NCBI GenBank assembly: GCA_021845725.1
Contig: JAJZVL010000003.1
Span: 1,806-65,805, forward strand
Source: Actinomycetes bacterium
GTDB lineage: Bacteria > Actinomycetota > Acidimicrobiia > Acidimicrobiales > RAAP-2
DNA: 64,000 bases
Direction: 5' to 3'
Shown here: one piece after another, positions 2-58,427 of the stretch
How positions within the stretch are numbered: position 1 is the first letter of the stretch
Layout: the number at the start of each line of letters is the position of its first letter
Notes under the pieces: model-generated
What the model was told of the DNA's origin: nothing
Database searches by the model: none
The model's input: only the letters and a program-made list of their open reading frames with translations
Made by a program: the position numbers and the translations under genes

Positions 2-766
2 ACGATCTGTGCGACGTCGTCGTTCGCGCTGCTGATTGCCGAAGAGATTGCGTCACGAGGAATGCGCGATTCGCTTCAGCTCCGCCGCGGCATCATCGGC
101 TCGGAGAGATGGGGCTCGGGAATGCGGTCCCGTATCGACGAATTGTTGAACATCGAATCGTTCGATATCTACGGTTTGACCGAGCTCTACGGCCCCGGAG
201 TGGGAATCGACTGTAGCCGTCACGACGGGATCCACGTATGGTCGGACTACTACGTGGTCGAGATCATCGATCCGGAGACTCTCGAACCTCTCCCTGCGGG
301 TCAGGAAGGCGAGATCGTCGTCACGACCTTGCGAAAGGAGGCGATGCCCCTGATCCGCTACCGGACGCGCGACAGATCCTGGCTGTACGAAGAACCGTGC
401 TCGTGCGGTAGCCCGTTCCCTCGCATCGGTCGAATTCTCGGCCGAACGGACGACGTCGTGAAAGTACGAGGCGTCGCGATCGCTCCGGCGCAGGTGGACT
501 CGGTGCTCTCGACCTTCGAGGAGCTCGGTCCCGAATACCAGATCCGCATTTCGCGGCCCGATGGCAGACGTGACCAGGTGGTCGTGCTGGTCGAAGGAGA
601 CGGTGACGCAAGCGCGGGGACAGTCGTGGCGGAGCGTCTTCGCGAGGCGATGGGGGTGCGCGTGGAAGTGGAGATCGTGAGCTACGGGACGTTACCGCGC
701 AGCGAGGGGAAAAGTCGGCGCGTCGTCGACGAGCGGTCCCCTGAGGACGCTGGAAATGTATCGTGA
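2..766 (+). CDS. paaK: Phenylacetate-CoA ligase family protein (PaaK / coenzyme F390 synthetase-like); 5' end lies outside the window
   Basis: The frame is open from the window edge. C-terminal half motifs FDIYGLTELYGPGVGIDC, EGEIVVTTL, PLIRYRTRD and GRTDDVVKVRG are typical of PaaK-type adenylate-forming ligases. Confidence 0.8.
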   Translation, partial: TICATSSFALLIAEEIASRGMRDSLQLRRGIIGSERWGSGMRSRIDELLNIESFDIYGLTELYGPGVGIDCSRHDGIHVWSDYYVVEIIDPETLEPLPAGQEGEIVVTTLRKEAMPLIRYRTRDRSWLYEEPCSCGSPFPRIGRILGRTDDVVKVRGVAIAPAQVDSVLSTFEELGPEYQIRISRPDGRRDQVVVLVEGDGDASAGTVVAERLREAMGVRVEVEIVSYGTLPRSEGKSRRVVDERSPEDAGNVS

Positions 767-891
767 CGGAGCCGTGTGATGTGCATGCGATCACCGCATG
801 AGCACGACTCCGGGTGGTGTTCCTCCGCGAGGATAGGGACGAGCACACTGCGCACAGGAGCGCGAGCGGCCGCGCACTGGTCTGGGCGCCC

Positions 892-1824
892 ATGATGGAT
901 TGGATGCCGACGTTCTTTGCGACCGGCATCGGTCAACTCCCAGAGACCCTGGTGAGCGGCATCGTCAACGGCTGCATCTACGCCTTGGCGGCCGTGAGCC
1001 TGCTCGTCGTCTACAACGTCACCGGCGTCATCAACTTCGCCGTCGGGGACTTCCTCATGGCGGGCGCGATGCTCACGCTCCTGTTCGCCGGCCCGAACGG
1101 TGATCCGCATCGGCTGCCACTCGCGCTGGCCGTGCTCTTGGCGGTGGTCATCGTGACGGCTCTGGGAGGACTGCTCGAGCTCCTCGTGATCCATCCCCGC
1201 CGCCGGTACGGGACCATCTTCCTGCTCATCCTCACGATCGGGATCTCGTCGGTGCTCGAGGGCGGTGCGCTCATCCCTACGGGCTCCCTCACCTACGGGC
1301 TCCGCCCGTTCACGTCCGGGCCCGCACTGTCGGTCGCCGGCGTCCTGATCCCACGGCAGGATTTCTGGATCGTCGGGTCCACCCTGATCGTGATGGGTCT
1401 GCTCTGGTACGGAGCAACTCGGACGAGGATTGGCAAGGCGTTGCGGGCGTGCGAGGTCAACCCGACCGCGGCTCGACTCGTCGGGATCCGGGTTGACAGG
1501 TACTGGACCATCGCATTCGCGCTCGGGGCTCTCCTGGCGGCCTTTGCGGGAGCGATCCTGGTTCCCGTGACGTATGCCACCTACAACATGGGAATTCCGA
1601 TCACGTTGAAAGCCTTCGTCGCGTGGATCCTGGGCGGCGCGGAGTCGCCGCTCGGCGCGGTGGCGGGCGGCGTGGGCTTCGGCGTGCTCGAGGCAGTGGT
1701 GCTCGGGTACTCCCCGGCATCAGTGGCGAACTACGGAGACGCCGTGCCACTCCTGCTGCTGATCGTGGCTCTCGTCATCCGTCGGCGTGGCTTGACTCGC
1801 CAGATGGCGGTGACGCGCGTATGA
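892..1824 (+). CDS. livH: Branched-chain amino acid type ABC transporter permease (LivH family)
   Basis: Multi-TM protein starting MMDWMPTFFATGIGQLPETLVSGIVNGCIYALAAVSLLVVYNVTGVINFAVGDF. The stop overlaps the next start (ATGA at 1821-1824). The ORF-track start at 814 looks like an N-terminal over-extension. Confidence 0.85.
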   Translation: MMDWMPTFFATGIGQLPETLVSGIVNGCIYALAAVSLLVVYNVTGVINFAVGDFLMAGAMLTLLFAGPNGDPHRLPLALAVLLAVVIVTALGGLLELLVIHPRRRYGTIFLLILTIGISSVLEGGALIPTGSLTYGLRPFTSGPALSVAGVLIPRQDFWIVGSTLIVMGLLWYGATRTRIGKALRACEVNPTAARLVGIRVDRYWTIAFALGALLAAFAGAILVPVTYATYNMGIPITLKAFVAWILGGAESPLGAVAGGVGFGVLEAVVLGYSPASVANYGDAVPLLLLIVALVIRRRGLTRQMAVTRV

Positions 1825-8559: not shown

Positions 8560-10890
8560 ATGCCAGCGGTTCGGGCGAGTGAACTGCAGGTGGTCGGGCG
8601 CCGGATTCCGAAGCTCGACGCGCCCGAGAAGGTGACGGGCCAGATCGCCTACGCGGACGACCTGCGCATGTCGGGTCTGCTGGAAGGGGCCATTCTGCGA
8701 AGTCCGCATCCCCACGCGCGGATCCTGTCGATCGACGTTTCAGATGCTGAACGTCTGCCCGGAGTGCGGGCGGTGATCCATGCAGGGAACGTGCAGCAGG
8801 GCTGCTTCGGGTACGGGAACGACAATGTTCCGCTCAAGGGTGACAAGGTCCGCTTCATCGGCGACGAAGTGGCGGCGGTCGCGGCGGTCGACGAAGAAGT
8901 CGCGAAGAGGGCACTCGAGCTGATCCGCGTCGAGTACGAGGTGCTCCCTGCTGTGTTCGATCCTTTCGAAGCCCTGGAAGACTCGTCGCCCTCCATTCAC
9001 GACGAGCTCCCAGACGTCGATGGCAACGTCTCCATGCGCTGGGACTTCGACCACGGGGACGTCGATGCCGTCGCCGATCGCGCTGCAGCGATCGTCGAGG
9101 GTCGCTACTCCGCACCTCAGGCTGCACCAGCTCCCATCGAGACCCATGTGGTCATAGCTTCGTTCAGTCCTTCGGGCCATTTGACGGTATGGAGCCCGGT
9201 CCACATGGTGTTCATGTACCGTAAGGCACTCGCGGACGTTCTTGGTCTCGACTGGAGAAAGATCACGGTCATCCAGCCCCCGGTAGGTGGGAGCTTCGGA
9301 GGAAAGATCGACATCGACACCCATGATTTCATCGCCGTGATGTTGGCGAGGCACGCGAGGCGGCCGGTTCGCTTGGTGATGAGCAGGGAGGAGGAGTTCA
9401 TCGGGACGCGCACTCGTCAGCCGATCCACTTCACGCTGCGCACCGGGGCTGATGCCGATGGGAACCTGCTCTTCCGCGATGCGGAGGTCGTGTCCGACAA
9501 CGGTGCGTACAACGCCTGGGGATCCCACGCGATGCTCGTCGCGATGAACACGATCACCTCGATGTACCGGGTGCCGAACAGCCGCATTCGCTGTGCTGTC
9601 GTGTACACGAACAAGAATTACGGCGGATCGGTGCGGGGTTTCGGCAATCCTCAGGCGACCTTCGCTGTCGAGCAGCAGATGGAGGAGCTCGCCGACGCGC
9701 TCGGCATGGATCCCATGGACCTCAGGCTGCGCAATGCCAACCAGTCCGGCGACGTGACGCCTCAGGGCATGGAGATCACGTCCTGCGGACTGAGCCAGTG
9801 CCTGGACATCGTGCGCGAGCAGTCAGGATGGGACAGGCGCCGTGGCAAGATGCGCGACCGCCACCGGGGCCTCGGAGCGGCGGCGTTCATCCATGTCGGC
9901 GGGGGCGCGCGCATCTACGGGTCCGACGGATGCGGCGCCATCGTCAAGGTGGACGAATCTGGGCAGGTGACCCTGATCTCGGGTTCCTCGGAGCTGGGTC
10001 AGGGCTCGGAGACCGCGCTCGCCATGATCGTGGCCGAGGAGATGGGCGTGCCGATCGAATCGGTGCACGTGGTGAATTCCAACACGGACATCAAGCCCTG
10101 GGACGTCGGCGTGCATGCGAGTCGCACGACGTTCGTTGCCGGCAATGCCGCCCGCATGGCCGCTGCAGCGGCTCGCGACAAGATCCTCGAGGCAGCAGCC
10201 GACCTCCTCGACGCGCGCGCTGGCGACCTGCGGATTCGAGAAGGCGTCGTCGAAGTCGCCGGAGAACCTGACCGACAGATCGAGTTCGGCCGGGCCGTCC
10301 GGCGTCGTCTCCTGCGAGAAGAGGGCAGCGTAGTGATGGCGACCGCCTTCTACGACCCGCCCACTCACCATCAGGACAAGGACTACCGTGGCAATATCTC
10401 CGCGGCATATGGCTTCGGCGCCCATGTGGCCGAAGTGGAGGTCGATCCCGGCACGGGCATGGTGCGCCTGCTCAATCTCTGGACGGCGCACGACGTGGGG
10501 CGGGCGATCAATCCCATGTCGTGCGAAGGGCAGATCGAGGGCGGAGCGGCGATGGGGGTGGGTCTCGCGTTGTCAGAGGAGCTCGTGATGTTCGACGGCC
10601 AGATCGCTGCACCGAACTTCCATGACTACGGCCTGCCGACTGCCGTGGACGTCCCGCGGACCGTGGTGAACCTCGTCGAGACCATCGATCCTCTCGGACC
10701 GTTCGGGGCGAAAGGCGTCGGCGAAGGAGGGATCATCCCGCCGCCTGCTGCCATCGCAAACGCGATTGCAGATGCAACGGGCGTCCGGCCGCGCGAGTAC
10801 CCGATGCGACCCTGGAAGGTGAAGCACTGGATTGACTCGGGGGAGCGTTCGCACGTGGTCGCGGGAAAGGAGGCATCCGAGCATGGCTGA
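8560..10890 (+). CDS. Molybdopterin-binding large subunit of a xanthine dehydrogenase / aldehyde oxidase family hydroxylase (CoxL-like)
   Basis: N-terminus VGRRIPKLDAPEKVTGQIAYADDL, then SPHPHARILSIDVS, GGSFGGK and GELGQGSETALAMIVAEEMG. Approximately 776 aa. The stop overlaps the next start. Confidence 0.9.
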   Translation: MPAVRASELQVVGRRIPKLDAPEKVTGQIAYADDLRMSGLLEGAILRSPHPHARILSIDVSDAERLPGVRAVIHAGNVQQGCFGYGNDNVPLKGDKVRFIGDEVAAVAAVDEEVAKRALELIRVEYEVLPAVFDPFEALEDSSPSIHDELPDVDGNVSMRWDFDHGDVDAVADRAAAIVEGRYSAPQAAPAPIETHVVIASFSPSGHLTVWSPVHMVFMYRKALADVLGLDWRKITVIQPPVGGSFGGKIDIDTHDFIAVMLARHARRPVRLVMSREEEFIGTRTRQPIHFTLRTGADADGNLLFRDAEVVSDNGAYNAWGSHAMLVAMNTITSMYRVPNSRIRCAVVYTNKNYGGSVRGFGNPQATFAVEQQMEELADALGMDPMDLRLRNANQSGDVTPQGMEITSCGLSQCLDIVREQSGWDRRRGKMRDRHRGLGAAAFIHVGGGARIYGSDGCGAIVKVDESGQVTLISGSSELGQGSETALAMIVAEEMGVPIESVHVVNSNTDIKPWDVGVHASRTTFVAGNAARMAAAAARDKILEAAADLLDARAGDLRIREGVVEVAGEPDRQIEFGRAVRRRLLREEGSVVMATAFYDPPTHHQDKDYRGNISAAYGFGAHVAEVEVDPGTGMVRLLNLWTAHDVGRAINPMSCEGQIEGGAAMGVGLALSEELVMFDGQIAAPNFHDYGLPTAVDVPRTVVNLVETIDPLGPFGAKGVGEGGIIPPPAAIANAIADATGVRPREYPMRPWKVKHWIDSGERSHVVAGKEASEHG

Positions 10891-40759: not shown

Positions 40760-40784
40760 CCTTGACGTCTCCCGCGTCGAGCTT

Positions 40785-40935
40785 TCCGCCGGCACAGGTG
40801 TCCTGGCTCCCGGATCGACGCTCTCCCCGGCCTTCCAATCCCGATGGACCGTGGCCTCAGCTGGGGGTTGCTCCCCGGTTACAGTTGCGGGACAGCCCCG
40901 GATTCTCACCGGCGTTCCCTGTAGCCGCCCCGGAC
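40785..40935 (-). promoter_or_regulatory. Cobalamin (B12) riboswitch leading the cobQ operon
   Basis: The minus strand reads GGGAACGCCGGTGAGAATCCGGGGCTGTCCCGCAACTGTAACCGGGGAGC ... GAAGGCCGGGG ... AGCCAGGACACC (B12-box-like, 40797-40808). Closing-helix candidate is CGGCTACAG / CTGTGCCGG. Confidence 0.85.
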
Positions 40936-40985
40936 GTTACCAGCCCTCGGTCGAACCCGCGAAACCGCTCTCACCTCCCGCCGCC

Positions 40986-41831
40986 GTGACCACCCCGCTT
41001 CGCGTGCTGCTGCTCGGGGGGACGACCGAGGCCAGCGGTCTGGCCGAGGCGCTGTCCGCACGCGACGACGTGTCGGTCGTGACCTCGTTGGCGGGACGGA
41101 CGGCAGCGCCCACCGCCCTGCCCGGACACCGACGGATCGGCGGGTTCGGCGGCCCTGGCGGCCTGGTCGCGTACCTCAGGTCGGAGCGCATCACAGCGGT
41201 CGTGGACGCCACGCACCCCTTCGCCGAGGCGATGCACCAGGAGGCGTACGACGCCTGTCGCGAGGCCGGGGTACCGAGGCTCCGCCTTGAACGGCCTCGG
41301 TGGCAGGCGCAGGGGGGGGACCGCTGGACGGTGGTTGCCGACGTGGCAGCTGCCGCGGCCGCCATCTCGGCTGGTCCAGCGCGGCGGGTGTTCCTCACCA
41401 CCGGTCGAGGCGACCTGGCTGCCTTCGTCCCCGGGGTCGACGGGCAACGCTGGTGGCTGGTTCGCTCGATCGATCCGCCGACGCGACTGCCGCTGCACCC
41501 TGCAGAGGTGATCCTCTCCCGTGGCCCGTTCAGCGTCGAAGGTGAGGCAGAGCTCATGGAGCTCCACCGGATCGACCTCGTCGTCACCAAGAACAGCGGC
41601 GGCGACGCCACCGTCGCCAAGCTCCATGCAGCTCGCCACCTGGATGTTGCCGTCCTCGTGATCGACCGGCCTCCTTCACCGCCCGGCCCGTCGGCTGCGA
41701 CCGTCTCTGATGCGCTCGAGTGGCTGTGGGCCTCGCTCGGCCTCCGACCGGCCGATGAGGGACGGCCTCGGCCCGCGCTCAGGAACGGCTGGCGTCTCCG
41801 GCGGCGACCTCCGCGACGCCTCGACCGCTGA
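40986..41831 (+). CDS. cobK: Precorrin-6A / cobalt-precorrin-6A reductase
   Basis: LRVLLLGGTTEASGLAEAL, IGGFGG, VDATHPFAEAM and VVTKNSGG. GTG start at 40986. The C-terminal approximately 30 aa are Arg-rich and overlap the convergent gene. Confidence 0.85.
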   Translation: MTTPLRVLLLGGTTEASGLAEALSARDDVSVVTSLAGRTAAPTALPGHRRIGGFGGPGGLVAYLRSERITAVVDATHPFAEAMHQEAYDACREAGVPRLRLERPRWQAQGGDRWTVVADVAAAAAAISAGPARRVFLTTGRGDLAAFVPGVDGQRWWLVRSIDPPTRLPLHPAEVILSRGPFSVEGEAELMELHRIDLVVTKNSGGDATVAKLHAARHLDVAVLVIDRPPSPPGPSAATVSDALEWLWASLGLRPADEGRPRPALRNGWRLRRRPPRRLDR

Positions 41832-44277
41832 CGGCGGCGGCGACCGCCTCGAGGGTCGGGCCGCTTGCGCCGCCGCGACTCTCGGTGGACAGCGCCGCAG
41901 CCACGTTGGCGAGGCGGGCGGCGGCCATCACGTCGTCTCCGGCCGCGAGCCGCGCCAGCATGGCGCCGACGTGGACGTCGCCGGCGCCGGTCGTGTCGAC
42001 GGCGGCGGCTCGGTGCCCGGGCACGTGCGCGGGTGCCATCCCCTGACGGGCGACCCAGCAGCCACCAGGTCCGACCCGCACCACGGCGACGCCGCCGGGG
42101 GCGAGCTGCTCGGCGAGCGCTGCTGCCGCTGCCGCAGGCGTGCGCGCCCCGGTACGCACGGCAGCCTCGCGCTCGCTGGCGCTGAAGAGGTTCACGCGCC
42201 CGAGCACCGCCCCGACGGGGTCTCCGGGGGACCCCCCGAGCGGTCCGGGGTCCACGGCCAGGAGGTGCTCAGGGTCCAGTCCGCGCAGCCATGACGCGAT
42301 CGCGGGTCCGGCGATGGGGTAGAGGAGGTCGTAGCCCGAGACGTAGACCGCGTCGCCGGCCTCCAGGACGACCTGCCGGAGGGAGCCGGCGTCGAGCCGC
42401 GACTCGATCCCGGGGGCGGTCACGAACGTGCGCTCACCGTCGGCTTCGACGATGCCGACGGTGAACCCCGTGTCTTCACCGGCGGCCGGCGGGATGAGGG
42501 CACGGATGCCGGAGAACTCGAGGTCTCGCGCCACTTGGCGCCCGAAGGCGCCGTCTCCGATCAGCCCTGCGTACGCACTGGGCAGGCCGAGGCGTGACGC
42601 CGCGCTCAGGACGTTGAACCCTCCGCCGCTGGCCAGGGTGCGGTCGTCGGCGATCACGTCACCGCCTCGCGTCGGCAGCGCGTCCACATGCACGAGGATG
42701 TCGAGGAGGATGCTGCCCACCAGTACCAGCCGGCTGACGGGAGCGGAGGCGGGGACGTACGCCTCCGGCGCGGGGCTCGCGGCCGGCGTTACGGCCGTCG
42801 CATCGTTGCAGGTGCTCGGAGGCGTCGGGGCCGACCAGCTCCGCCGCCGGCGTGCGATCGCGGTCAGCTCCCACCCGGCGATCGACACGGCTGCAGCCAC
42901 CGCGAGCCCGAGCCCGAACCCGAAGCTCCCGTCGCCCACCAGCCCGCCGGCGAGCGGCCCGGTGTAGAGCGGCGACGAAGTGGTCACGAGCGCCACCGCT
43001 GAGCCGGCGGCGAAACCGGCCAGTCCCGGCACATCCACGGCCCGGGCGGCATCCACGGCTCGGGTGGCATCCACGGCCCGGGCGGCATGCACGGCCCGGG
43101 CGGCCACCGTGCCGGCAGGGGAGCGCCGGGCGGATGCTCGCGTGGTGCTGACCATGTCGGCCAGCACCACTCCGGCCCAGGCGCTGAGCGCGGTCGCGAG
43201 CAGCGTCAGGAAGCTCTCGAACGGGCCGAGGAACCCGGAGCGGCCGATCATGAGCCACAGCCCGGCTCCGCACACCACGACGCCGTCGACCAGGACGGTG
43301 CGGCTGCGGCGGATCCGGACGCCGAGCGCGAGCAGCGTCAGGCCCGACGAGTAGCAGGCCAAGTCGGACTCGGCGAGCATGCCGCCGGCCGCGACCAGCA
43401 GGAAGGGCGTGGAGATCCACGCGGGGAGCGCCGCTCCGATCGGCCCGACCGGATCGAGGGCGGTTGCCAGGCCGTGGACCTTCGTGCTGAGGAGGTAGCC
43501 GGTGACGACCAGCACCGCGGTCGGCAGCGCCGCACCGCTCGTGACCCAGCCGACGACCGATCGGGCCCGCTCGTCCAGCGGCAGGTAGCGGCTGTAGTCG
43601 GGGGCGAGGTTGACCCAGCTGATGCCGGTCCCCGCTGCCAGGATCCCGCCGGCCACCAGCACGGTTCGCAGCGACGCCGGGTGTCCCGCGGCCAGCCGGC
43701 CGACGTCGACGTGCACCAGGAGCACGGGGAGAACGGCGACGGTGAGGAGGCCGAACCCGATGGCCGCGAGCCGCTGGAAGCGCAGGATCGCGCCGTGGCC
43801 GAGCACGCCGAGGACGAGTGACGCGCCGATCATGACGCCGAGCGCCGACGCGTCCACGACCGCTCCGGCCTGCACGTCGAAGACCGCGTGCGCTGCAGCG
43901 ACCAGAGCCCACGCGCCGATGACCGACGTCACCACCTCCCAGCCCAGCACGCTCACCCAGCCCACTGCCGCCGCGACGAGGTTGCCGGTCCGCCCCATTG
44001 CTCGGCGCGAGAGCACGAGGGCCGGCATCCCGGCGCGCTGGCCGGCCACCGACACCGCTCCGACCAAGAGGAACGACACCGTCGTCGCTGCGGCCGCGGT
44101 CACCAGCGCCTGGACCAGGTCGAGGCCCATCGCAGCGAGGATCGCGCCGAAGACGACCCCGAGGATCCCGAGGTTCGCGGCGAACCAGACTGCGAAGAGG
44201 CTCCTGGCGCGTCCATGGCGCTCGTCGGGGGGCACCGCCTGGATGCCACGCTGCTCGATCCAGGCGTGTCCCGTCAC
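41779..44277 (-). CDS. Single-ORF fusion of an NCS1-family (purine-cytosine type) permease with a C-terminal PfkB/ribokinase-family kinase
   Basis: Residues 1 to approximately 475 are NCS1-like (WIEQRGIQAVPPDERHGRARSLFAVWFAANLGI, multi-TM). A Pro/Ala/Ser/Thr linker follows. From residue approximately 514 the protein is a PfkB kinase (LVLVGSILLDILVHVDALPTRGGD, GGGFNVLSAASRLG, DTTGAGDVHVGAML). No stop codon occurs in 832 codons. Confidence 0.8.
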   Translation of the reverse strand: MTGHAWIEQRGIQAVPPDERHGRARSLFAVWFAANLGILGVVFGAILAAMGLDLVQALVTAAAATTVSFLLVGAVSVAGQRAGMPALVLSRRAMGRTGNLVAAAVGWVSVLGWEVVTSVIGAWALVAAAHAVFDVQAGAVVDASALGVMIGASLVLGVLGHGAILRFQRLAAIGFGLLTVAVLPVLLVHVDVGRLAAGHPASLRTVLVAGGILAAGTGISWVNLAPDYSRYLPLDERARSVVGWVTSGAALPTAVLVVTGYLLSTKVHGLATALDPVGPIGAALPAWISTPFLLVAAGGMLAESDLACYSSGLTLLALGVRIRRSRTVLVDGVVVCGAGLWLMIGRSGFLGPFESFLTLLATALSAWAGVVLADMVSTTRASARRSPAGTVAARAVHAARAVDATRAVDAARAVDVPGLAGFAAGSAVALVTTSSPLYTGPLAGGLVGDGSFGFGLGLAVAAAVSIAGWELTAIARRRRSWSAPTPPSTCNDATAVTPAASPAPEAYVPASAPVSRLVLVGSILLDILVHVDALPTRGGDVIADDRTLASGGGFNVLSAASRLGLPSAYAGLIGDGAFGRQVARDLEFSGIRALIPPAAGEDTGFTVGIVEADGERTFVTAPGIESRLDAGSLRQVVLEAGDAVYVSGYDLLYPIAGPAIASWLRGLDPEHLLAVDPGPLGGSPGDPVGAVLGRVNLFSASEREAAVRTGARTPAAAAAALAEQLAPGGVAVVRVGPGGCWVARQGMAPAHVPGHRAAAVDTTGAGDVHVGAMLARLAAGDDVMAAARLANVAAALSTESRGGASGPTLEAVAAAVSGRGVAEVAAGDASRS
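43032..43103 (-). repeat. 18-bp tandem repeat, 4 copies, in frame within the permease part of the NCS1-PfkB gene
   Basis: CATCCACGGCCCGGGCGG / CATCCACGGCTCGGGTGG / CATCCACGGCCCGGGCGG / CATGCACGGCCCGGGCGG on the plus strand. It encodes the A-R-A-V-(H/D)-A hexapeptide repeats (ARAVHAARAVDATRAVDAARAVD). Confidence 0.9.
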
Positions 44278-44348
44278 CGGCGGCGCACTGTAGCGCGACC
44301 TTCCGTCGCCGGGCGGGGGTGCTCCCGGTGGGCTGCGCTACCATCATG

Positions 44349-44495
44349 GCGCTGCAGTGCTCGGGAAGCCGGTGCGAGCCCGGCGCGGTCCCGCCACTGT
44401 GACCGGGGAGCGCCCCCCACGACGCCACTGGACCCGCCGGGCCTGGGAAGGCGGGGTGCGCGCCGATCCGGGAGCCAGGAGACCGGCTGCAGCGG
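44349..44495 (+). promoter_or_regulatory. Cobalamin (B12) riboswitch leading the cobI operon
   Basis: P1 candidate is GCTGCAG (44351-44357) with CTGCAGC (approximately 44487-44493). Core is GGGAAGCCGGTGCGAGCCCGGCGCGGTCCCGCCACTGTGACCGGGGAGC, then GCCACTGG and CTGGGAAGGCGGGG. B12-box-like AGCCAGGAGACC is at 44473-44484. ATG 44523 follows after GGGAGATGG. Confidence 0.9.
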
Positions 44496-44522
44496 TAAGG
44501 TGCCTCGTTCCACGGGAGATGG

Positions 44523-53406: not shown

Positions 53407-55131
53407 TCAGGCTCCGTGCTCCCCGACCGCGGCGGTTTCCTTGCGTGCGCGGATGGCCGTCAAGAGCAGCTGGGCGGCCAGGCTGGCACCGACGCCTTCT
53501 CCTGAGCGCAACCGCAGCTGGAGCAGCGGCTCCACCCCGAGCTCGACCAGCACCCGCTCGTGTGCTGCCTCCCGGCTGCGTTGGCCTGCGATCAACGCGC
53601 TGTGGACCGCCGGTTCGAGGCGCATCGCGACCAGCGCGGCCACGGAGGTGACCAGCCCGTCGAGGACCACGGGAACCCGAGCACCGGCGGCGGCCACGGT
53701 GAGCCCTGCGAGGAACGCGAGCTCCGGACCGCCCACCGCGGCGAGGGCCACCTCCGGCCTCGAGAGCCCCTTGCCATGAGCGGACCGGGCGCGCGCCAGC
53801 CCCTTTTCCACGACGTCTCGCTTGCGTCGGAGCATCGCCGAGTCGGATCCCGCGCCCAGCCCGACGGCCTGGTCTGGATCCATCTCCACCAACGCGCACG
53901 CCAGGGCAGCGGCGACGGTCGTATTGCCGATGCCGACCTCCCCCAGGCAGACGAGGCCATCTCGGGCGACCCGCCTCCCGACCTCCTCCCCTGCCTGCAA
54001 CAACGTGGCAACGTCGGAGGGGTCGAGCGCGTCGGTGGTCACGATGTCGCCCGGAGGGCGGGTGGCGGTGGGGTGTGCCGCTTCGACGGCCAGGCCGGCC
54101 GCGCGCGCGGCCGCTGCCCCGAGGGAGACGCCAGCACGAGTGGCTGCGAGGACGTCGGCCGTCACCGACGGGGAGAACGCGGAGATGCCGTACCGCGTCA
54201 CCGGGTGGTCCCCGGCTGCGACCACGAGGGTCCCTGAGCTCGGCGGGTCCGGACGAAGCGCCAGGACCCGGTCGATCGCGAGGTCGAGGACCCCGAGCGA
54301 TCCTGGGACGGTCAAGCGGCGGTCACCCTCGTCACGCGCGGCGACGACCGCTGCCGGGTGGGGACCGGCAAGGTGCGACACCGGCGTCGCGGGTCCGCCG
54401 GTGACAGGCCAGCGCTCCTCGATGACGACATCGTCGAGGGGCAGCCGTTCCGACCAGCCGTGCCGCTCCAGTCCGGGGCTGGGCGGTCGCTCGTCCGGCC
54501 AGCCGATACAGAGCCAGCCCAGCGTCTCGACCCCCTCTGGCAAGCCGAGCAGCCCTGCCAGATCTTCGGGCTGGAAGAGCGTCACCCATCCGAGGCCGAG
54601 CCCGACGGCGCGTGCCGCCAGCCACATGTTCTCGACCGCGCACGCGCAGCTCCACATGTCGGTGTCGGCGAAGCTGGCGCGCCCAAGGACGCCCGCAGCC
54701 GGCACTCGCCGGTCGCAGGCCACGACCACCCCGAGAGGCGCCTCCCGGATGCCGTCGAGCTTCAGGTCGAGAAGCCGGGACCTTCGCTCCTCCGTGAGCA
54801 TGCCGGCCTGCCGGAGCCGCTCGCGGTCGGCGATCTGCGCCGCTCGGTCGCGCGTGGCCTGGTCTCGCACGACGATGAACCGCCACGGCTGGGAGTGCCC
54901 GACGGAGGGAGCCTGATGTCCCGCGGTGAGGATCCGGCGCAGGATGTCGGAGGGTACCTCGTCGGGACGGAAGCGGCGCACATCCCGACGCGCCGCGACC
55001 ACCTTGTGCAAGGCCTCCACCGTCGACGCATCGAAGGACCATCCTCGAGGGTGCGCCGCGCGCTCGGCCGCAGACGTCGGATCACCGATCAAGGGGACCG
55101 GGCGCGGCCACACGGCTCCGTCCATGCGCAC
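53407..55131 (-). CDS. Fusion of BluB (5,6-dimethylbenzimidazole synthase, nitroreductase fold) with CobT (nicotinate-nucleotide:DMB phosphoribosyltransferase)
   Basis: N-terminal RRDVRRFRPDEVPSDILRRILTAGHQAPSVGHSQPWRFIVV. C-terminal CobT motifs VVAAGDHPV and GEVGIGNTTVAAALACAL. Confidence 0.85.
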   Translation of the reverse strand: MRMDGAVWPRPVPLIGDPTSAAERAAHPRGWSFDASTVEALHKVVAARRDVRRFRPDEVPSDILRRILTAGHQAPSVGHSQPWRFIVVRDQATRDRAAQIADRERLRQAGMLTEERRSRLLDLKLDGIREAPLGVVVACDRRVPAAGVLGRASFADTDMWSCACAVENMWLAARAVGLGLGWVTLFQPEDLAGLLGLPEGVETLGWLCIGWPDERPPSPGLERHGWSERLPLDDVVIEERWPVTGGPATPVSHLAGPHPAAVVAARDEGDRRLTVPGSLGVLDLAIDRVLALRPDPPSSGTLVVAAGDHPVTRYGISAFSPSVTADVLAATRAGVSLGAAAARAAGLAVEAAHPTATRPPGDIVTTDALDPSDVATLLQAGEEVGRRVARDGLVCLGEVGIGNTTVAAALACALVEMDPDQAVGLGAGSDSAMLRRKRDVVEKGLARARSAHGKGLSRPEVALAAVGGPELAFLAGLTVAAAGARVPVVLDGLVTSVAALVAMRLEPAVHSALIAGQRSREAAHERVLVELGVEPLLQLRLRSGEGVGASLAAQLLLTAIRARKETAAVGEHGA

Positions 55132-55185: not shown

Positions 55186-57543
55186 TCACCGTGGATCAGG
55201 ACCTGGACCCGATCGGTGCTCCTGAGCGGCGCTCTCCTCACCGAGCGAGAGGTAGCTCTCGTCTTCTTGAGCCGTGTGCAGCCGCAGGACGGCGTAGAGG
55301 CCGTAGAGCAGCCCGCGAAGCTCGACGGTGTCCTCCTCGTCGAGACCCTCGGCGCCGACCTCGTCCAAGAGCTGGCCGAGGCGTCGCACCTGGTGGGCGA
55401 TCTCCACGTGCTCACGGCTCATCGGTCCGGTCGGGTTCGCGCCGCCGATCGCCCGGTCGAGCGCGGGGTAGAGCTCCCGGTCCTCTGCCTCCTCGTGGGG
55501 GAGGACCTCGTCGACCAGCAGCCGGTACACCTGGCGCGCCTGCGCCAGGGCAGCGGAGGCGTCGACCGTTCCGAGCGTGTCGGCGACCGCCCGCAGGCGC
55601 TCGGTCACCGCCCGGATGGACGCGTGCTCCTCGCGGAAGCGGCGAGCCAACGCCGAGCCTTCCTCGTCGAGGCGTCCGGGCTCGGGCCCGGGCCGCAGCG
55701 CCCGGAGCGCGTTCAGGATGACCGTCACGTCGATCCCCTCTTGCAAGAGGGCTCCCCACACCGCTGGCAGCCGCCCCAGGCCGGCGGCCGCCATCGCTGC
55801 CAGCGACATGGCCATGCCAGTGACGACGCTCTGGAGGGCGATTCGCCGGGTCCGCGCGGCGATCGAGCGCACCTGGGCGAGCCGGTCGAGCCGGTCGGTC
55901 ATGAGCACCATGTCGGCTGCTTCCGAGCTGACGGTCGCGCCGCGCGCCCCGACCGCCACCCCTACGTCGGCCAGCGCCAGCGCCGGAGCATCGTTGATGC
56001 CGTCGCCGACCATGACGGTTGGCGCGTGCCGCCGTTCCTCACGCACCACGTCGAGCTTCTCGACCGGAGAGCGCTCGGCCATGACCTCGTCCACCCCGAT
56101 CACGGCGCCGACCGTCTCGGCGACCTCGTGGCGGTCGCCGGTCACCATCACGATGCGGTCGATGCCGGCTTGTCGCAGGGCCCGGACCGTCCGGGCCGCA
56201 TCCGTTCTGATCGGGTCCTCGAGGATGAGGACGCCGGCCGGTTCTTCGTCGACCGAGACGAAGACGGTCATGGTGCCGTCGAGCCGGGCTCGGCGGCGCG
56301 CAGCCTTGGCCCACGACGGATTGCCCGTGATGCCCACCCACGCTGCCTTGCCGACCGCGACCGAGCGGTCGCCGACCTTGCCGCGGATGCCCTGTCCCGC
56401 CACCTCCTCGACCGCCTCGGGCAGCACGAGCGGCAGTGCTCGCGCTTCGGCCGCTTTGACCACCGCGCTTGCCAGGACGTGGGGCGACATCTGGTCGAGG
56501 GACGCGGCGAACCCCAGCACTGCGTCGGCGGTGTGGGTCTCGGCCGCGACGACCGACGCCACCTCGGGCCGGCCGGCGGTGAGCGTGCCGGTCTTGTCGA
56601 ACAGCAGGGTCGTGCACGACGCCAGCCGTTCGAGGACACCGCCACCTTTTACGACGATGCCCCGGCGTGCGGCCTGGGAAAGCCCTCCGACCAGGGCGAC
56701 CGGCGCGGCCAGGATGAGCGGGCAGGGAGTGGCGACCACGAGGACCGCGACGGCTCGGACCGCTCCCCCGGCAGCCCAGGCGATCCCGGAGCCGGCCAGG
56801 GTGAGCCCGAGGAACCAGAGCGCATAGCGGTCGGCGAGCCGGACGAACGGCGGCTGTGCCGCCTCGGCTTGCTGGACCAGCCGGACGATCCCCGAGTACG
56901 TGCTCTCTGCAGCGGTCGCGGTTGCCCGGAGATCGAAGGGCGGACCTGCGTTGGCCGACCCGCTACGGACGGGCTCGCGCGCCTCGCGCTCGACAGGGAT
57001 CGACTCGCCGGTCAGGGCCGACTCGTCCAGGACCGCTGCCGACTCGAGGTTCCCGTCGACCGGCACGAGCTCACCAGAGCCGACCATGACCCGGTCTCCG
57101 ACCGTGATCCGCTCGAGGGGAACCGTCTCGAGCCCCGAGCTCGTGTAGCGGTGGGCGATCCGCGGCGAGCGCTCGAGCAGGGCCCGCAGGTCGTGCCGGG
57201 CCCGCCCCGCCGCCCAGGACTCCAGGGCCCGGCCGGTCACGAGCATGGTGCTCACCACTGCCGCGGCCAGTCCCTCCCCGGTCCCAAGGGTTCCGACGAG
57301 GGCGAGCAGGGCGATGAGGTCCACCCCGATCCGCGCTCGTCGCAGGCTGTCGATCATCGTCCACAGGGAGTAGACCGCGCCGAACGCACCCGTGGCGTCC
57401 CACGCCACGTCGCCTCCTGCGGGAAGGCCGGCCATGTGCAGTGCCCCGCCGACCGCCAGCCCGGCCAAAGTCGCTCCCAGGAGCGCGACCGGGTAGCGCT
57501 GGACGAGCGCGGCGCAGCGTGGCCCGATCGAAGGAGTGCTCAC
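55186..57543 (-). CDS. P1B-5 type heavy-metal P-type ATPase with a C-terminal hemerythrin-like domain
   Basis: TPCP in the transmembrane region (VVATPCPLILAAP), DKTGTLT, VTGDRHEVAE, VGDGINDAPALA, and QEGIDVTVILNA in the last TM. No N-terminal CxxC domain. The C-terminal approximately 145 aa carry HHE-type repeats (FREEHASI, LPHEEAEDRELYP, SREHVEIAH, LHTAQEDES). Confidence 0.9.
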   Translation of the reverse strand: MSTPSIGPRCAALVQRYPVALLGATLAGLAVGGALHMAGLPAGGDVAWDATGAFGAVYSLWTMIDSLRRARIGVDLIALLALVGTLGTGEGLAAAVVSTMLVTGRALESWAAGRARHDLRALLERSPRIAHRYTSSGLETVPLERITVGDRVMVGSGELVPVDGNLESAAVLDESALTGESIPVEREAREPVRSGSANAGPPFDLRATATAAESTYSGIVRLVQQAEAAQPPFVRLADRYALWFLGLTLAGSGIAWAAGGAVRAVAVLVVATPCPLILAAPVALVGGLSQAARRGIVVKGGGVLERLASCTTLLFDKTGTLTAGRPEVASVVAAETHTADAVLGFAASLDQMSPHVLASAVVKAAEARALPLVLPEAVEEVAGQGIRGKVGDRSVAVGKAAWVGITGNPSWAKAARRRARLDGTMTVFVSVDEEPAGVLILEDPIRTDAARTVRALRQAGIDRIVMVTGDRHEVAETVGAVIGVDEVMAERSPVEKLDVVREERRHAPTVMVGDGINDAPALALADVGVAVGARGATVSSEAADMVLMTDRLDRLAQVRSIAARTRRIALQSVVTGMAMSLAAMAAAGLGRLPAVWGALLQEGIDVTVILNALRALRPGPEPGRLDEEGSALARRFREEHASIRAVTERLRAVADTLGTVDASAALAQARQVYRLLVDEVLPHEEAEDRELYPALDRAIGGANPTGPMSREHVEIAHQVRRLGQLLDEVGAEGLDEEDTVELRGLLYGLYAVLRLHTAQEDESYLSLGEESAAQEHRSGPGPDPR

Positions 57544-57617: not shown

Positions 57618-58427
57618 TCAGCTCTGGCCCGTGGGCGTGCGCGGTGATCCCTCGAGGTCGATGTGCTGGCGCACCCGGTCCGCGAGCGCTGAGGGGATGA
57701 CGCTATCGGGATCGTGCAAGGAGCCCAGGGAGGTCGTGGCCGCGACGAGCGACCGGTACAGGGGTGGGCACGTGGCGCACCGGGCGAGATGGGCCTCGAG
57801 CGCGGCGCGCTCTGCCGCTTCGAGCTCTCCGTCGACGTAGCTCGACACCTGTCGACGAGCCTCCCAGCAGCTGAGGGGAACGCCAGCGTTCGCCGTTCGC
57901 CGCTGTCCTCCTTGGGCCAGGGCACTCACGAGCATCATCCTTCCTCGTCGGATCCGCTGCTTGGCCGCAGCGACAGAGATGCCGAGCACGCGTGCGACCT
58001 CGTTCGCCGGCCACCCTTCTGCGTCGTGGAGCACCACGGCACTCCGGTAGTGCTGGGGGAGATGGATGAGCGCGTCCCGAAGATCGGCTGCGGACTCCGC
58101 ACGTTCGGCCACGGTCGCGGCGTCGACGCTGTAGCCCTCGTCACGCCAGCGGGTCTCCACGTCTTCGACACTGAGCTCGTGTGCGTGATGGCGAGCCCGG
58201 TCGATCGCCAAATGGTAGAGGACCTGGTGAAGCCAGGTCCGGATCGTCGCCTCGCCCCTGTACTGCTCGCCTCGCTCGAGGGCCCGCACGACGGCGTCAC
58301 CGACGAGGTCCTCTGCCTCCGCCTCGTTGGCCGTGATCGAGCGTGCGTACCGGTACAGCCCAGGGAGCTCCGCCGCCACTTGGGCGGCGAAGCTCCCGCT
58401 CGGCTCGGACGGTCCGTCGGCGACCAC
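57618..58427 (-). CDS. ECF-type sigma-70 factor with a fused C-terminal ZAS-like (zinc anti-sigma) domain
   Basis: Sigma region 2 (DLVGDAVVRALER...TWLHQVLYHLAIDRAR) and region 4 (LPQHYRSAVVLHDAEGWPANEVARVLGISVAAAKQRIRRGR). A 99-aa extension follows with C187-x25-H213-x3-C217-x2-C220 (SCWEARRQV...EAHLARCATCP, 57768-57869). No TM segment. Confidence 0.8.
   Translation of the reverse strand: MVADGPSEPSGSFAAQVAAELPGLYRYARSITANEAEAEDLVGDAVVRALERGEQYRGEATIRTWLHQVLYHLAIDRARHHAHELSVEDVETRWRDEGYSVDAATVAERAESAADLRDALIHLPQHYRSAVVLHDAEGWPANEVARVLGISVAAAKQRIRRGRMMLVSALAQGGQRRTANAGVPLSCWEARRQVSSYVDGELEAAERAALEAHLARCATCPPLYRSLVAATTSLGSLHDPDSVIPSALADRVRQHIDLEGSPRTPTGQS

Follow-up and report, generated by a model that had tools for sequence, protein, structure and literature searches.

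Why does a gene that joins a transporter to a kinase lie in the middle of a vitamin B12 (cobalamin) locus? The question is raised by a 64,000-nucleotide stretch, hereafter the window, of contig JAJZVL010000003.1 from an Actinomycetes bacterium of the order Acidimicrobiales. Here a single frame of 832 codons (41779..44277, minus strand; GTG start at 44277, stop at 41779-41781) encodes an NCS1 permease, a linker and a PfkB kinase. We compared this fusion with relatives gathered from GTDB species genomes and from metagenomes. The comparison indicates that the fusion probably has some B12-related function. With roughly even confidence, we propose that it takes up and 5'-phosphorylates alpha-ribazole, the alpha-riboside of 5,6-dimethylbenzimidazole (DMB), or a close lower-ligand riboside.

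A conserved fusion gene

A sequence-only reading of this DNA had described one frame holding an NCS1 permease, a linker and a kinase with a DTTGAGD motif. The open reading frame (ORF) list, translation, Pfam and GC content at third codon positions (GC3) all bear this out. Pfam places Transp_cyt_pur (PF02133) at amino acids 15-383 (142 bits, E 3e-41) and PfkB (PF00294) at amino acids 516-805 (115 bits, E 6e-33) in the same frame, and no other family in the protein. Based on Pfam, hydropathy and an AlphaFold model, the permease domain spans amino acids 1-479 (42841..44277, minus strand). It is followed by a linker rich in Pro, Ala, Ser and Thr at amino acids 480-514 (42736..42840, minus strand), delimited by its variability in sequence and length, by the predicted local distance difference test score (pLDDT) and by GC3. 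The kinase domain, a YegV-like protein of ribokinase fold, occupies amino acids 515-832 (41779..42735, minus strand), as judged from Pfam, Foldseek and alignment to YegV. The AlphaFold model, calculated from a 59-sequence alignment (mean pLDDT 85.8), consists of two folded domains, the second an alpha/beta kinase domain, and a disordered linker, with pLDDT below 50 at amino acids 484-508.

Long spurious ORFs are common at ~73% GC, so an open frame alone is no proof of a gene. Across the linker region (residues 451-550) GC3 is 0.84-0.90 and the coding signal is unbroken. The same two-domain protein occurs in ~31 protein clusters, at 51-97% identity, and among 22 fusions aligned the linker differs in length and sequence while both domains are conserved. 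A frameshift or assembly artefact is ruled out by the continuous GC3 and by the recurrence of the architecture, with varying linkers, in the ~31 clusters; the fusion is a real, conserved gene. Full NCS1-PfkB fusions are rare, with ~3-5 representatives at 50% clustering among 1.84 billion proteins. A simple scan for a promoter and terminator around the gene gave nothing usable.

Association with B12 genes and riboswitches

The fusion lies between cobK and the riboswitch of the cobI operon, where the sequence-only reading had placed it. cobK (CbiJ; approximately 41001..41831, plus strand; PF02571, 241 bits) is convergent with the fusion, and the 3' ends of the two genes overlap by ~53 nt. On the other side, the cobalamin riboswitch of the divergent cobI operon (44338-44505, plus strand; Rfam RF00174, 90.3 bits; custom covariance model, 130 bits) is 60 nt from the fusion start on the opposite strand. 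This riboswitch is context and does not regulate the fusion mRNA; the promoter of the fusion must lie in or next to that DNA.

Relatives of the window fusion, which together with it form what we call the window clade, occur in several B12 settings. In L081 and L082 the fusion occupies the same slot between cobI and cobK (78-100% identity across these loci and the window). In L001 (~80% identity) the gene order is chelatase, NicO, fusion, CobO-like and CobB. The fusion shares a 4-nt stop/start overlap with each of its two neighbours and is thus predicted to be translationally coupled inside a cob operon. The fusions of L087, L004, L173 and L177 (59-66% identity) stand at the end of (CobC/D)-CobQ-CobN-chelatase(-NicO) operons on the same strand; gaps are 30-150 nt in L173 and L087, and a GHMP-like gene intervenes in L177. 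Upstream of the L089 fusion (56% identity) there is an adenosylcobalamin riboswitch on the same strand (51.7 bits). More distant members also carry riboswitches on the same strand. In L024, from Acidimicrobiaceae (46% identity), a 105-bit cobalamin riboswitch lies ~120-145 nt upstream of an NCS1 gene, inside which the contig ends. In L027, from a Spirochaetia metagenome-assembled genome (MAG; 35% identity), a 93.5-bit riboswitch lies ~160 nt upstream of the gene for a standalone NCS1 protein of 488 amino acids.

A custom covariance model scanned over 98 loci (1.63 Mb) found riboswitches at loci of the window clade only. Counting cob genes and riboswitches together, a B12 signal is present at 11 of 18 informative clade loci and at none of the 82 non-clade loci (Fisher p = 2e-10, phylogenetically uncorrected). 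The expectation that the architecture would co-localize with cob genes or riboswitches therefore holds for the window clade and fails for the architecture in general: NCS1-PfkB proteins as a whole are not B12-specific, and the window clade is strongly B12-linked. We accordingly place this clade, by its predicted gene context, within the B12 regulon. The sequence-only reading had also allowed that the gene was placed in the B12 locus by chance. The several cob-operon arrangements and the same-strand riboswitches in L024 and L027 make this unlikely.

Some of these loci show further features of their own. The L089 leader (9560-10000) contains a 23-codon ORF that has a strong ribosome-binding site (GAGGAGG), and also a degraded N-terminal fragment of cobQ (57% over 35 amino acids), which suggests that its riboswitch is a former cobQ-operon riboswitch left after deletion. 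The leader resembles the trace of a deletion in which cob genes were lost while the fusion stayed under B12 control. L002 (91% identical) was dropped as a B12 context and is uninformative: a TnpB-like ORF of the IS200/IS605 insertion sequence family (OrfB; 103-1299, minus strand) lies upstream, and homology to the window stops 37 nt before the start codon, the riboswitch-cobI spacer being replaced. Homologues of the cobI-side riboswitch are found in L081 (9637-9819, minus strand) and L082 (9477-9662, minus strand), 74-78% identical to the 90-bit riboswitch of the window. They were also recovered by blastn and score weakly (33-43 bits) with the custom covariance model, which was built from relatives. 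Rfam missed both homologues, that of L081 even with permissive filters and that of L082 in a scan at the gathering threshold only; these aptamers may be degenerating or divergent.

A NicO-family nickel/cobalt transporter gene directly precedes the fusion in L001 (1772-2935), L173 (6907-7971) and L177 (5724-6749), which puts a putative cobalt importer and the transporter-kinase in one operon; no NicO gene was found within the 64 kb of the window. A GHMP-kinase-like gene neighbours the fusion beside the cob operon in L177 (6940-7650, minus strand) and L173 (10380-11249, minus strand). Its product has a weak match to Pfam GHMP_kinases_N and weak similarity to thrB and IspE, and is possibly an L-threonine kinase of the PduX type. 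No homologue of this gene was found in the window.

Kinase pocket and permease

The kinase half belongs to the PfkB family (PF00294, 114.8 bits against a cut-off of 25.8) and has a ribokinase fold, matched by Foldseek with probability 1.00 and TM-scores of 0.82-0.84 to RbsK (1rkd, 1rk2) and YihV (7ag6). It aligns end to end with E. coli YegV at 29% identity (E 4e-32). It scores under every NCBIfam equivalog cut-off, the best match being to ribokinase (TIGR02152, 92.3 bits against 299.65; NF008353, 82.9 against 341). The GGGFN motif (amino acids 551-555; 42613..42627, minus strand) and the DTTGAGD motif, which combines the anion hole and the catalytic base (amino acids 761-767; 41977..41997, minus strand), both align to RbsK. 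The GGGFN motif, which includes G551-G552, and D761-D767 are invariant in the 22 fusions, and a family-specific His769 comes after the DTTGAGD motif.

We compared the substrate pocket through an alignment to E. coli RbsK (HMMER, 1gqt) and the family alignment, with residue roles taken from the structural literature on ribokinase. RbsK D16, G41-G42 and N46, which we take to bind the 2',3'-diol of ribose, have kept equivalents in D526, G551-G552 and N555. E190 of the NxxE motif, presumably part of the phosphate/Mg site, corresponds to E704, and D255 of GAGD, presumably the catalytic base, to D767. The catalytic site is intact. The position of RbsK N14 is L524 in the window kinase (Leu or Val in the family) and K43 is deleted. 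Both of these residues, we assume, contact the anomeric region of free ribose, and their replacement and loss are as expected if C1 of the ribose carried a substituent. The pocket fits a kinase that acts on the 5'-hydroxyl of a riboside, a ribose with a substituent at C1. A bona fide ribokinase is ruled out by the equivalog scores, which fall far under the cut-offs, and by the missing N14 and K43 equivalents. The kinase further differs from RbsK in being fused to a transporter.

The permease half is a member of the NCS1 family (PF02133, 142 bits against a cut-off of 23.5). Its scores fall short of the NCBIfam models TIGR00800 for ncs1 (65 bits against 353.1) and TIGR02358 for CytX, the transporter of hydroxymethylpyrimidine (HMP; 52 bits against 309.85). 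Hydropathy identifies 12 transmembrane (TM) segments at amino acids 37-474, followed by RRRR at 476-479, and in the AlphaFold model amino acids 26-482 form an all-helical bundle with pLDDT mostly above 90 and low confidence at 404-406. A sequence search of this half against solved structures returned no match. The 50 Foldseek matches listed of 796 all concern the kinase domain. According to the positive-inside rule and the known NCS1 topology, both termini of the 12 predicted helices are cytoplasmic and the kinase domain sits on the cytoplasmic side. This is the orientation that the sequence-only reading had anticipated.

Positions specific to the window clade are unevenly divided between the two domains. 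The permease has 31 of them, common even to L024 and L027, and several adjoin the conserved motifs of TM3, TM6 and TM8: S220 before W221, A307 (Asp elsewhere) before Y309-S310-S311, E303, L111 before G112-W113-E114, and W123. Only 13 clade-specific positions were found in the kinase relative to its relatives. They are mostly peripheral, so the kinase gives no signal of a substrate switch. We infer that the functional shift in the window clade maps to the permease, the part expected to read the aglycone.

The permease also contains an in-frame tandem repeat of 18 nt in 4.1 copies (43032..43104, minus strand; Tandem Repeats Finder score 125), which encodes (A)ARAVD-type repeats in the variable TM10-TM11 loop. 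P0001 (97% identical) is 12 residues shorter and further relatives have repeats of other sequence, such as ARRAS in P0007, so this loop varies by repeat copy number.

Origin from an ADP-ribosylglycohydrolase cassette

The architecture reaches beyond the window's lineage, with full fusions at 34-41% identity to the window protein in further Actinomycetes, Ktedonobacteria/Thermogemmatispora, Thermobaculum, Sulfobacillus and other Bacillota. In several cases, genes for a GntR/UTRA regulator and an ADP-ribosylglycohydrolase (ARH) lie directly upstream. No cob gene or riboswitch was found at any locus of the distant fusions from Ktedonobacteria, Thermobaculum, Sulfobacillus and other Bacillota. ARH and GntR genes are present beside the sister fusions L008-L011, L013, L015 and L018, and also in unfused cassettes. 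In many actinobacterial isolates (Leifsonia, Kutzneria, Planotetraspora and others) we found an unfused operon of NCS1, isochorismatase, in some cases GntR/UTRA, ARH and PfkB genes (L039, 9941-13996; L049 and L056, 10001-14540; also L030, L031, L033, L038, L053, L060, L074, L076 and L080). The kinases of the unfused cassettes are 42-48% identical to the window kinase. Fusions of ARH with a kinase of this family occur as well, in P0128, P0169, P0175, P0196, P0185 and P0162.

The NCS1 and kinase domains give concordant neighbour-joining trees, which place the window clade as sister to the ARH-linked fusions, and in the kinase tree, rooted on RbsK, the window-clade kinase is nested within ARH-adjacent YegV-like kinases. 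The ARH of the cassette is 35% identical to E. coli YegU. The cassette thus appears to be of the yegTUVW type, with an NCS1 carrier replacing the major facilitator superfamily (MFS) carrier YegT, and to be an actinobacterial counterpart of this orphan E. coli operon. The biochemical function of E. coli yegTUV is still unknown (PMC10819704). Searches with tblastn found no match to ARH or GntR in the window or at any clade locus, and the isochorismatase gene is also absent from the window clade. We conclude that this clade has lost ARH.

ARH enzymes are stereospecific for alpha-ribosyl linkages, including that of alpha-NAD+ (PMC9738213), which makes alpha-ribosides plausible substrates for the kinase family. 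From this we derive a broader suggestion, tentative and in our estimate doubtful, that the whole YegV/YegU-type family forms a pathway for alpha-anomeric ribosides. YegV-like kinases would phosphorylate alpha-ribosides (alpha-ribazole, other lower-ligand ribosides, alpha-nicotinamide riboside), after which ARH would break the alpha-N-glycosidic bond of the resulting 5'-phosphate. In the window clade ARH would have been dropped, the transporter site remodelled and the fusion recruited to the B12 regulon, where it would make alpha-ribazole-phosphate for CobS.

Proposed function and alternatives

Among natural alpha-N-ribosides alpha-ribazole is the best known, and its phosphate is an alpha-N-riboside 5'-phosphate. 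In the mechanism that we propose, the 12-TM NCS1 secondary transporter would import a small riboside, and the tethered cytoplasmic PfkB kinase would phosphorylate its 5'-hydroxyl on entry, trapping the compound and handing the 5'-phosphate to metabolism. In the window clade alpha-ribazole, or else a related lower-ligand riboside, is the most likely cargo. Its phosphorylation would yield alpha-ribazole-5'-phosphate, the substrate of CobS, whose gene is part of this locus, and would provide a salvage shortcut parallel to the BluB-CobT route. The riboside nature of the substrate, its identity and the trapping step are deduced, and it is the genomic context that points to alpha-ribazole. Of the fused alpha-ribazole device that the sequence-only reading had put forward, the B12-related trapping function is supported, and alpha-ribazole itself keeps this conditional standing. 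Free alpha-ribazole occurs in microbial communities (PMC6461909).

Several observations weigh against alpha-ribazole salvage. The window contains a single ORF (53407-55131, minus strand) that combines a BluB-like nitroreductase with DBI_PRT (CobT) and would join the DMB synthase to the phosphoribosyltransferase that activates DMB. The host is thus already equipped for de novo synthesis of alpha-ribazole-phosphate, and salvage would be redundant. The window fusion itself is not preceded by a riboswitch on its own strand and lies between cob operons. Its kinase pocket is nearly the same as in ARH-linked sister fusions that have no B12 context, so the kinase alone does not indicate alpha-ribazole, and the pocket argument takes its RbsK residue roles from the literature. 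At 7 of the 18 informative clade loci (L003/L088, L084, L090, L174, L175, L176 and the unfused L005) permissive Rfam and covariance-model searches found no cob gene or riboswitch in reach. Finally, independent events are fewer than the tally suggests because the clade loci are related. The cob-operon cases may trace to one ancestral insertion, and L089 was downgraded as an independent riboswitch gain owing to the cobQ remnant in its leader. This leaves few signals that are firmly independent, namely those of the cob-locus group, L024 and L027.

Some of these observations would suit a generic YegTUV/ARH-type module for riboside or nucleoside salvage or catabolism, with no role in B12 metabolism and a cob-locus position due to hitch-hiking of one ancestral insertion. 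Both domains nest in the family of ARH/isochorismatase/GntR cassettes, which has no B12 context, and the near identity of the pocket residues to those of the sister fusions and the seven loci without a B12 signal point the same way. Such hitch-hiking is hard to reconcile with the riboswitches that immediately precede the genes of two distant clade members, L024 and L027, with translational coupling inside the cob operon of L001 and several different cob arrangements, or with the retention of the fusion behind a riboswitch after the cobQ deletion in L089. Moreover, ARH is never adjacent in the clade, and none of the 82 non-clade loci has a B12 signal. We consider a module of this kind unlikely.

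The B12-regulon evidence would fit equally a different precursor of the cofactor. The cargo could be nicotinate or nicotinamide riboside, leading to nicotinate mononucleotide (NaMN), the ribosyl donor of CobT; riboflavin, leading to flavin mononucleotide (FMN) for BluB; or free DMB, in which case the kinase would act on a riboside inside the cell. NCS1 proteins carry the annotation of base permeases, nicotinamide riboside and uridine are known cargoes of fungal members, and the L027 permease stands alone, with no kinase attached. However, NaMN and FMN come from housekeeping pathways that have kinases of their own, and for these control by NAD or FMN would be expected and not a B12 riboswitch. 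A free base, moreover, lacks a hydroxyl that the fused kinase could phosphorylate. The isochorismatase gene of the ancestral cassette, a member of the nicotinamidase superfamily, could be taken to favour nicotinamide compounds, but it has no nicotinamidase equivalog match in NCBIfam and is missing from the clade. These precursors are in our judgement rather improbable.

Riboswitches that switch off when B12 is plentiful also suit B12-independent back-up systems, and L024, L027 and L089 are riboswitch-controlled members without nearby cob genes. The fusion could then import and phosphorylate (deoxy)nucleosides under B12 limitation, compensating for a B12-dependent enzyme (class II ribonucleotide reductase, for example), and would be co-regulated with B12 synthesis without taking part in it. 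We regard this as very unlikely. The conserved equivalent of RbsK D16, which normally binds the 2'- and 3'-hydroxyls, argues against deoxyribosides, and known deoxynucleoside kinases come from other families. The gene is also embedded with 4-nt overlaps in biosynthetic operons of B12 producers, and its ancestral partner ARH points to alpha-ribosides.

The idea that the kinase domain supplies the L-threonine kinase (PduX/BluE function) of the aminopropanol branch draws on the absence of a PduX-like gene from the 64-kb window by tblastn and on the CobC/D-type aminotransferase-fold gene of the locus, and it is most improbable, given a fold, motifs and conserved ribose-diol residues that are those of a PfkB sugar or riboside kinase and not of a GHMP (PduX) or BluE protein, a transporter fusion that would be senseless for an intracellular amino acid, and the separate GHMP-kinase-like gene (PduX fold) beside the fusion in L173 and L177. 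The sequence-only reading had also named HMP salvage as an alternative. HMP or thiamine salvage (CytX with a ThiD-like kinase) was rejected: the CytX score is 52 bits against a cut-off of 310, the kinase matches PfkB only, and Rfam scans turned up no thiamine pyrophosphate (TPP) riboswitch at any of the loci that they covered.

The B12 locus of the window

Apart from cobK and the BluB-CobT fusion, the B12 genes around the fusion are organized in two operons. The leftward operon begins with a cobalamin riboswitch (40776-40965, minus strand), followed by CobQ, a conserved 242-amino acid protein, CobN, a chelatase subunit (region 33047-34564, minus strand; tblastn), CobU, CobS, CbiB, a CobC/D-type aminotransferase and a methylase. 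The rightward operon consists of the riboswitch described above, CobI, CobM, CbiG-CobJ, CobH, CbiX, CobO and CobB. CobS, CobU, CbiB and the BluB-CobT fusion are thus all encoded within the window.

The conserved protein of ~240 amino acids between cobQ and cobN has no Pfam match (window 38481-39203, minus strand; L081 15044-15772; L082 15085-15801). It is 85% identical between the window and L081 and represents an uncharacterized candidate gene of the B12 pathway. The 1403-amino acid ORF listed for CobN overlaps its gene in another frame. A P-type ATPase with a C-terminal hemerythrin domain is encoded beside the B12 locus (55186-57543, minus strand), followed by an extracytoplasmic function sigma factor fused to a zf-HC2 anti-sigma domain (57618-58427, minus strand). 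The GC content of the window is ~0.65-0.68 at 1-30000, 0.72-0.76 from ~30 kb and ~0.67-0.70 past 60 kb. The B12 locus and the part of high GC coincide, possibly through horizontal acquisition or because the MAG contig is chimeric.

Comparison with known systems and implications

The closest functional analogue of the proposed system is CblT/CblS of Listeria innocua and other Firmicutes, in which CblT is an S component of the energy-coupling factor type and CblS a ThiM-like kinase. This B12-gene-linked pair imports alpha-ribazole and 5'-phosphorylates it for CobS, the function that is proposed here for the fusion (PMC6461909). It is the only described alpha-ribazole salvage system and is largely confined to Firmicutes, with 363 species (3.2%) (PMC6461909). 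CblT and CblS have no homology to the fusion and the comparison is one of analogy only. In our case an NCS1 carrier and a PfkB kinase are covalently joined, and the taxa are Acidimicrobiia-like Actinomycetota and, for a standalone permease, a Spirochaetia MAG.

By homology, the nearest system is E. coli yegTUVW, which encodes the transporter YegT, the ARH YegU, the PfkB kinase YegV and the GntR repressor YegW/GgaR. The fusion kinase is homologous to YegV, and the related cassette follows the same logic of transporter, ARH, kinase and GntR regulator. YegT, however, is an MFS nucleoside:H+ symporter and not an NCS1 protein, and the window clade occurs in B12 contexts instead of beside ARH and GntR genes. 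With CodB, Mhp1, CytX and the fungal Fui1 and Nrt1 permeases the fusion shares the Pfam family, 12 TM segments and the motifs of TM3, TM6 and TM8. It differs from them in its clade-specific substitutions by these motifs, its C-terminal kinase and its B12 rather than TPP or purine control. The trapping of vitamin ribosides by PnuC and NadR also couples riboside uptake to cytoplasmic phosphorylation, with a separate transporter and kinase of other families where the fusion is one polypeptide. Our literature searches found, within the library searched, no prior link of NCS1 or PfkB proteins to alpha-ribazole or cobalamin riboswitches. Salvage of precursors by transport and kinase trapping is already known, and an alpha-ribazole route through an NCS1-PfkB protein has probably not been described before.

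Members of microbial communities exchange cobamide lower ligands and the activated forms of these ligands. If the alpha-riboside reading is true, the fusion would be the first alpha-ribazole salvage system of the Actinomycetota. Lower-ligand salvage would then reach into another phylum, and predictions from genomes as to which organisms can use environmental alpha-ribazole would change; the related riboswitch-controlled permease in a Spirochaetia MAG suggests that the reach may be wider. The fusion would also be a rare natural case of a secondary carrier covalently joined to the kinase that traps its cargo, and would bring a protein of the NCS1 family into the B12 regulon. Finally, its ancestry ties it to the uncharacterized ARH cassette of the yegTUV type and suggests that phosphorylation of alpha-ribosides, followed by cleavage by ARH, may be the chemistry of that cassette.

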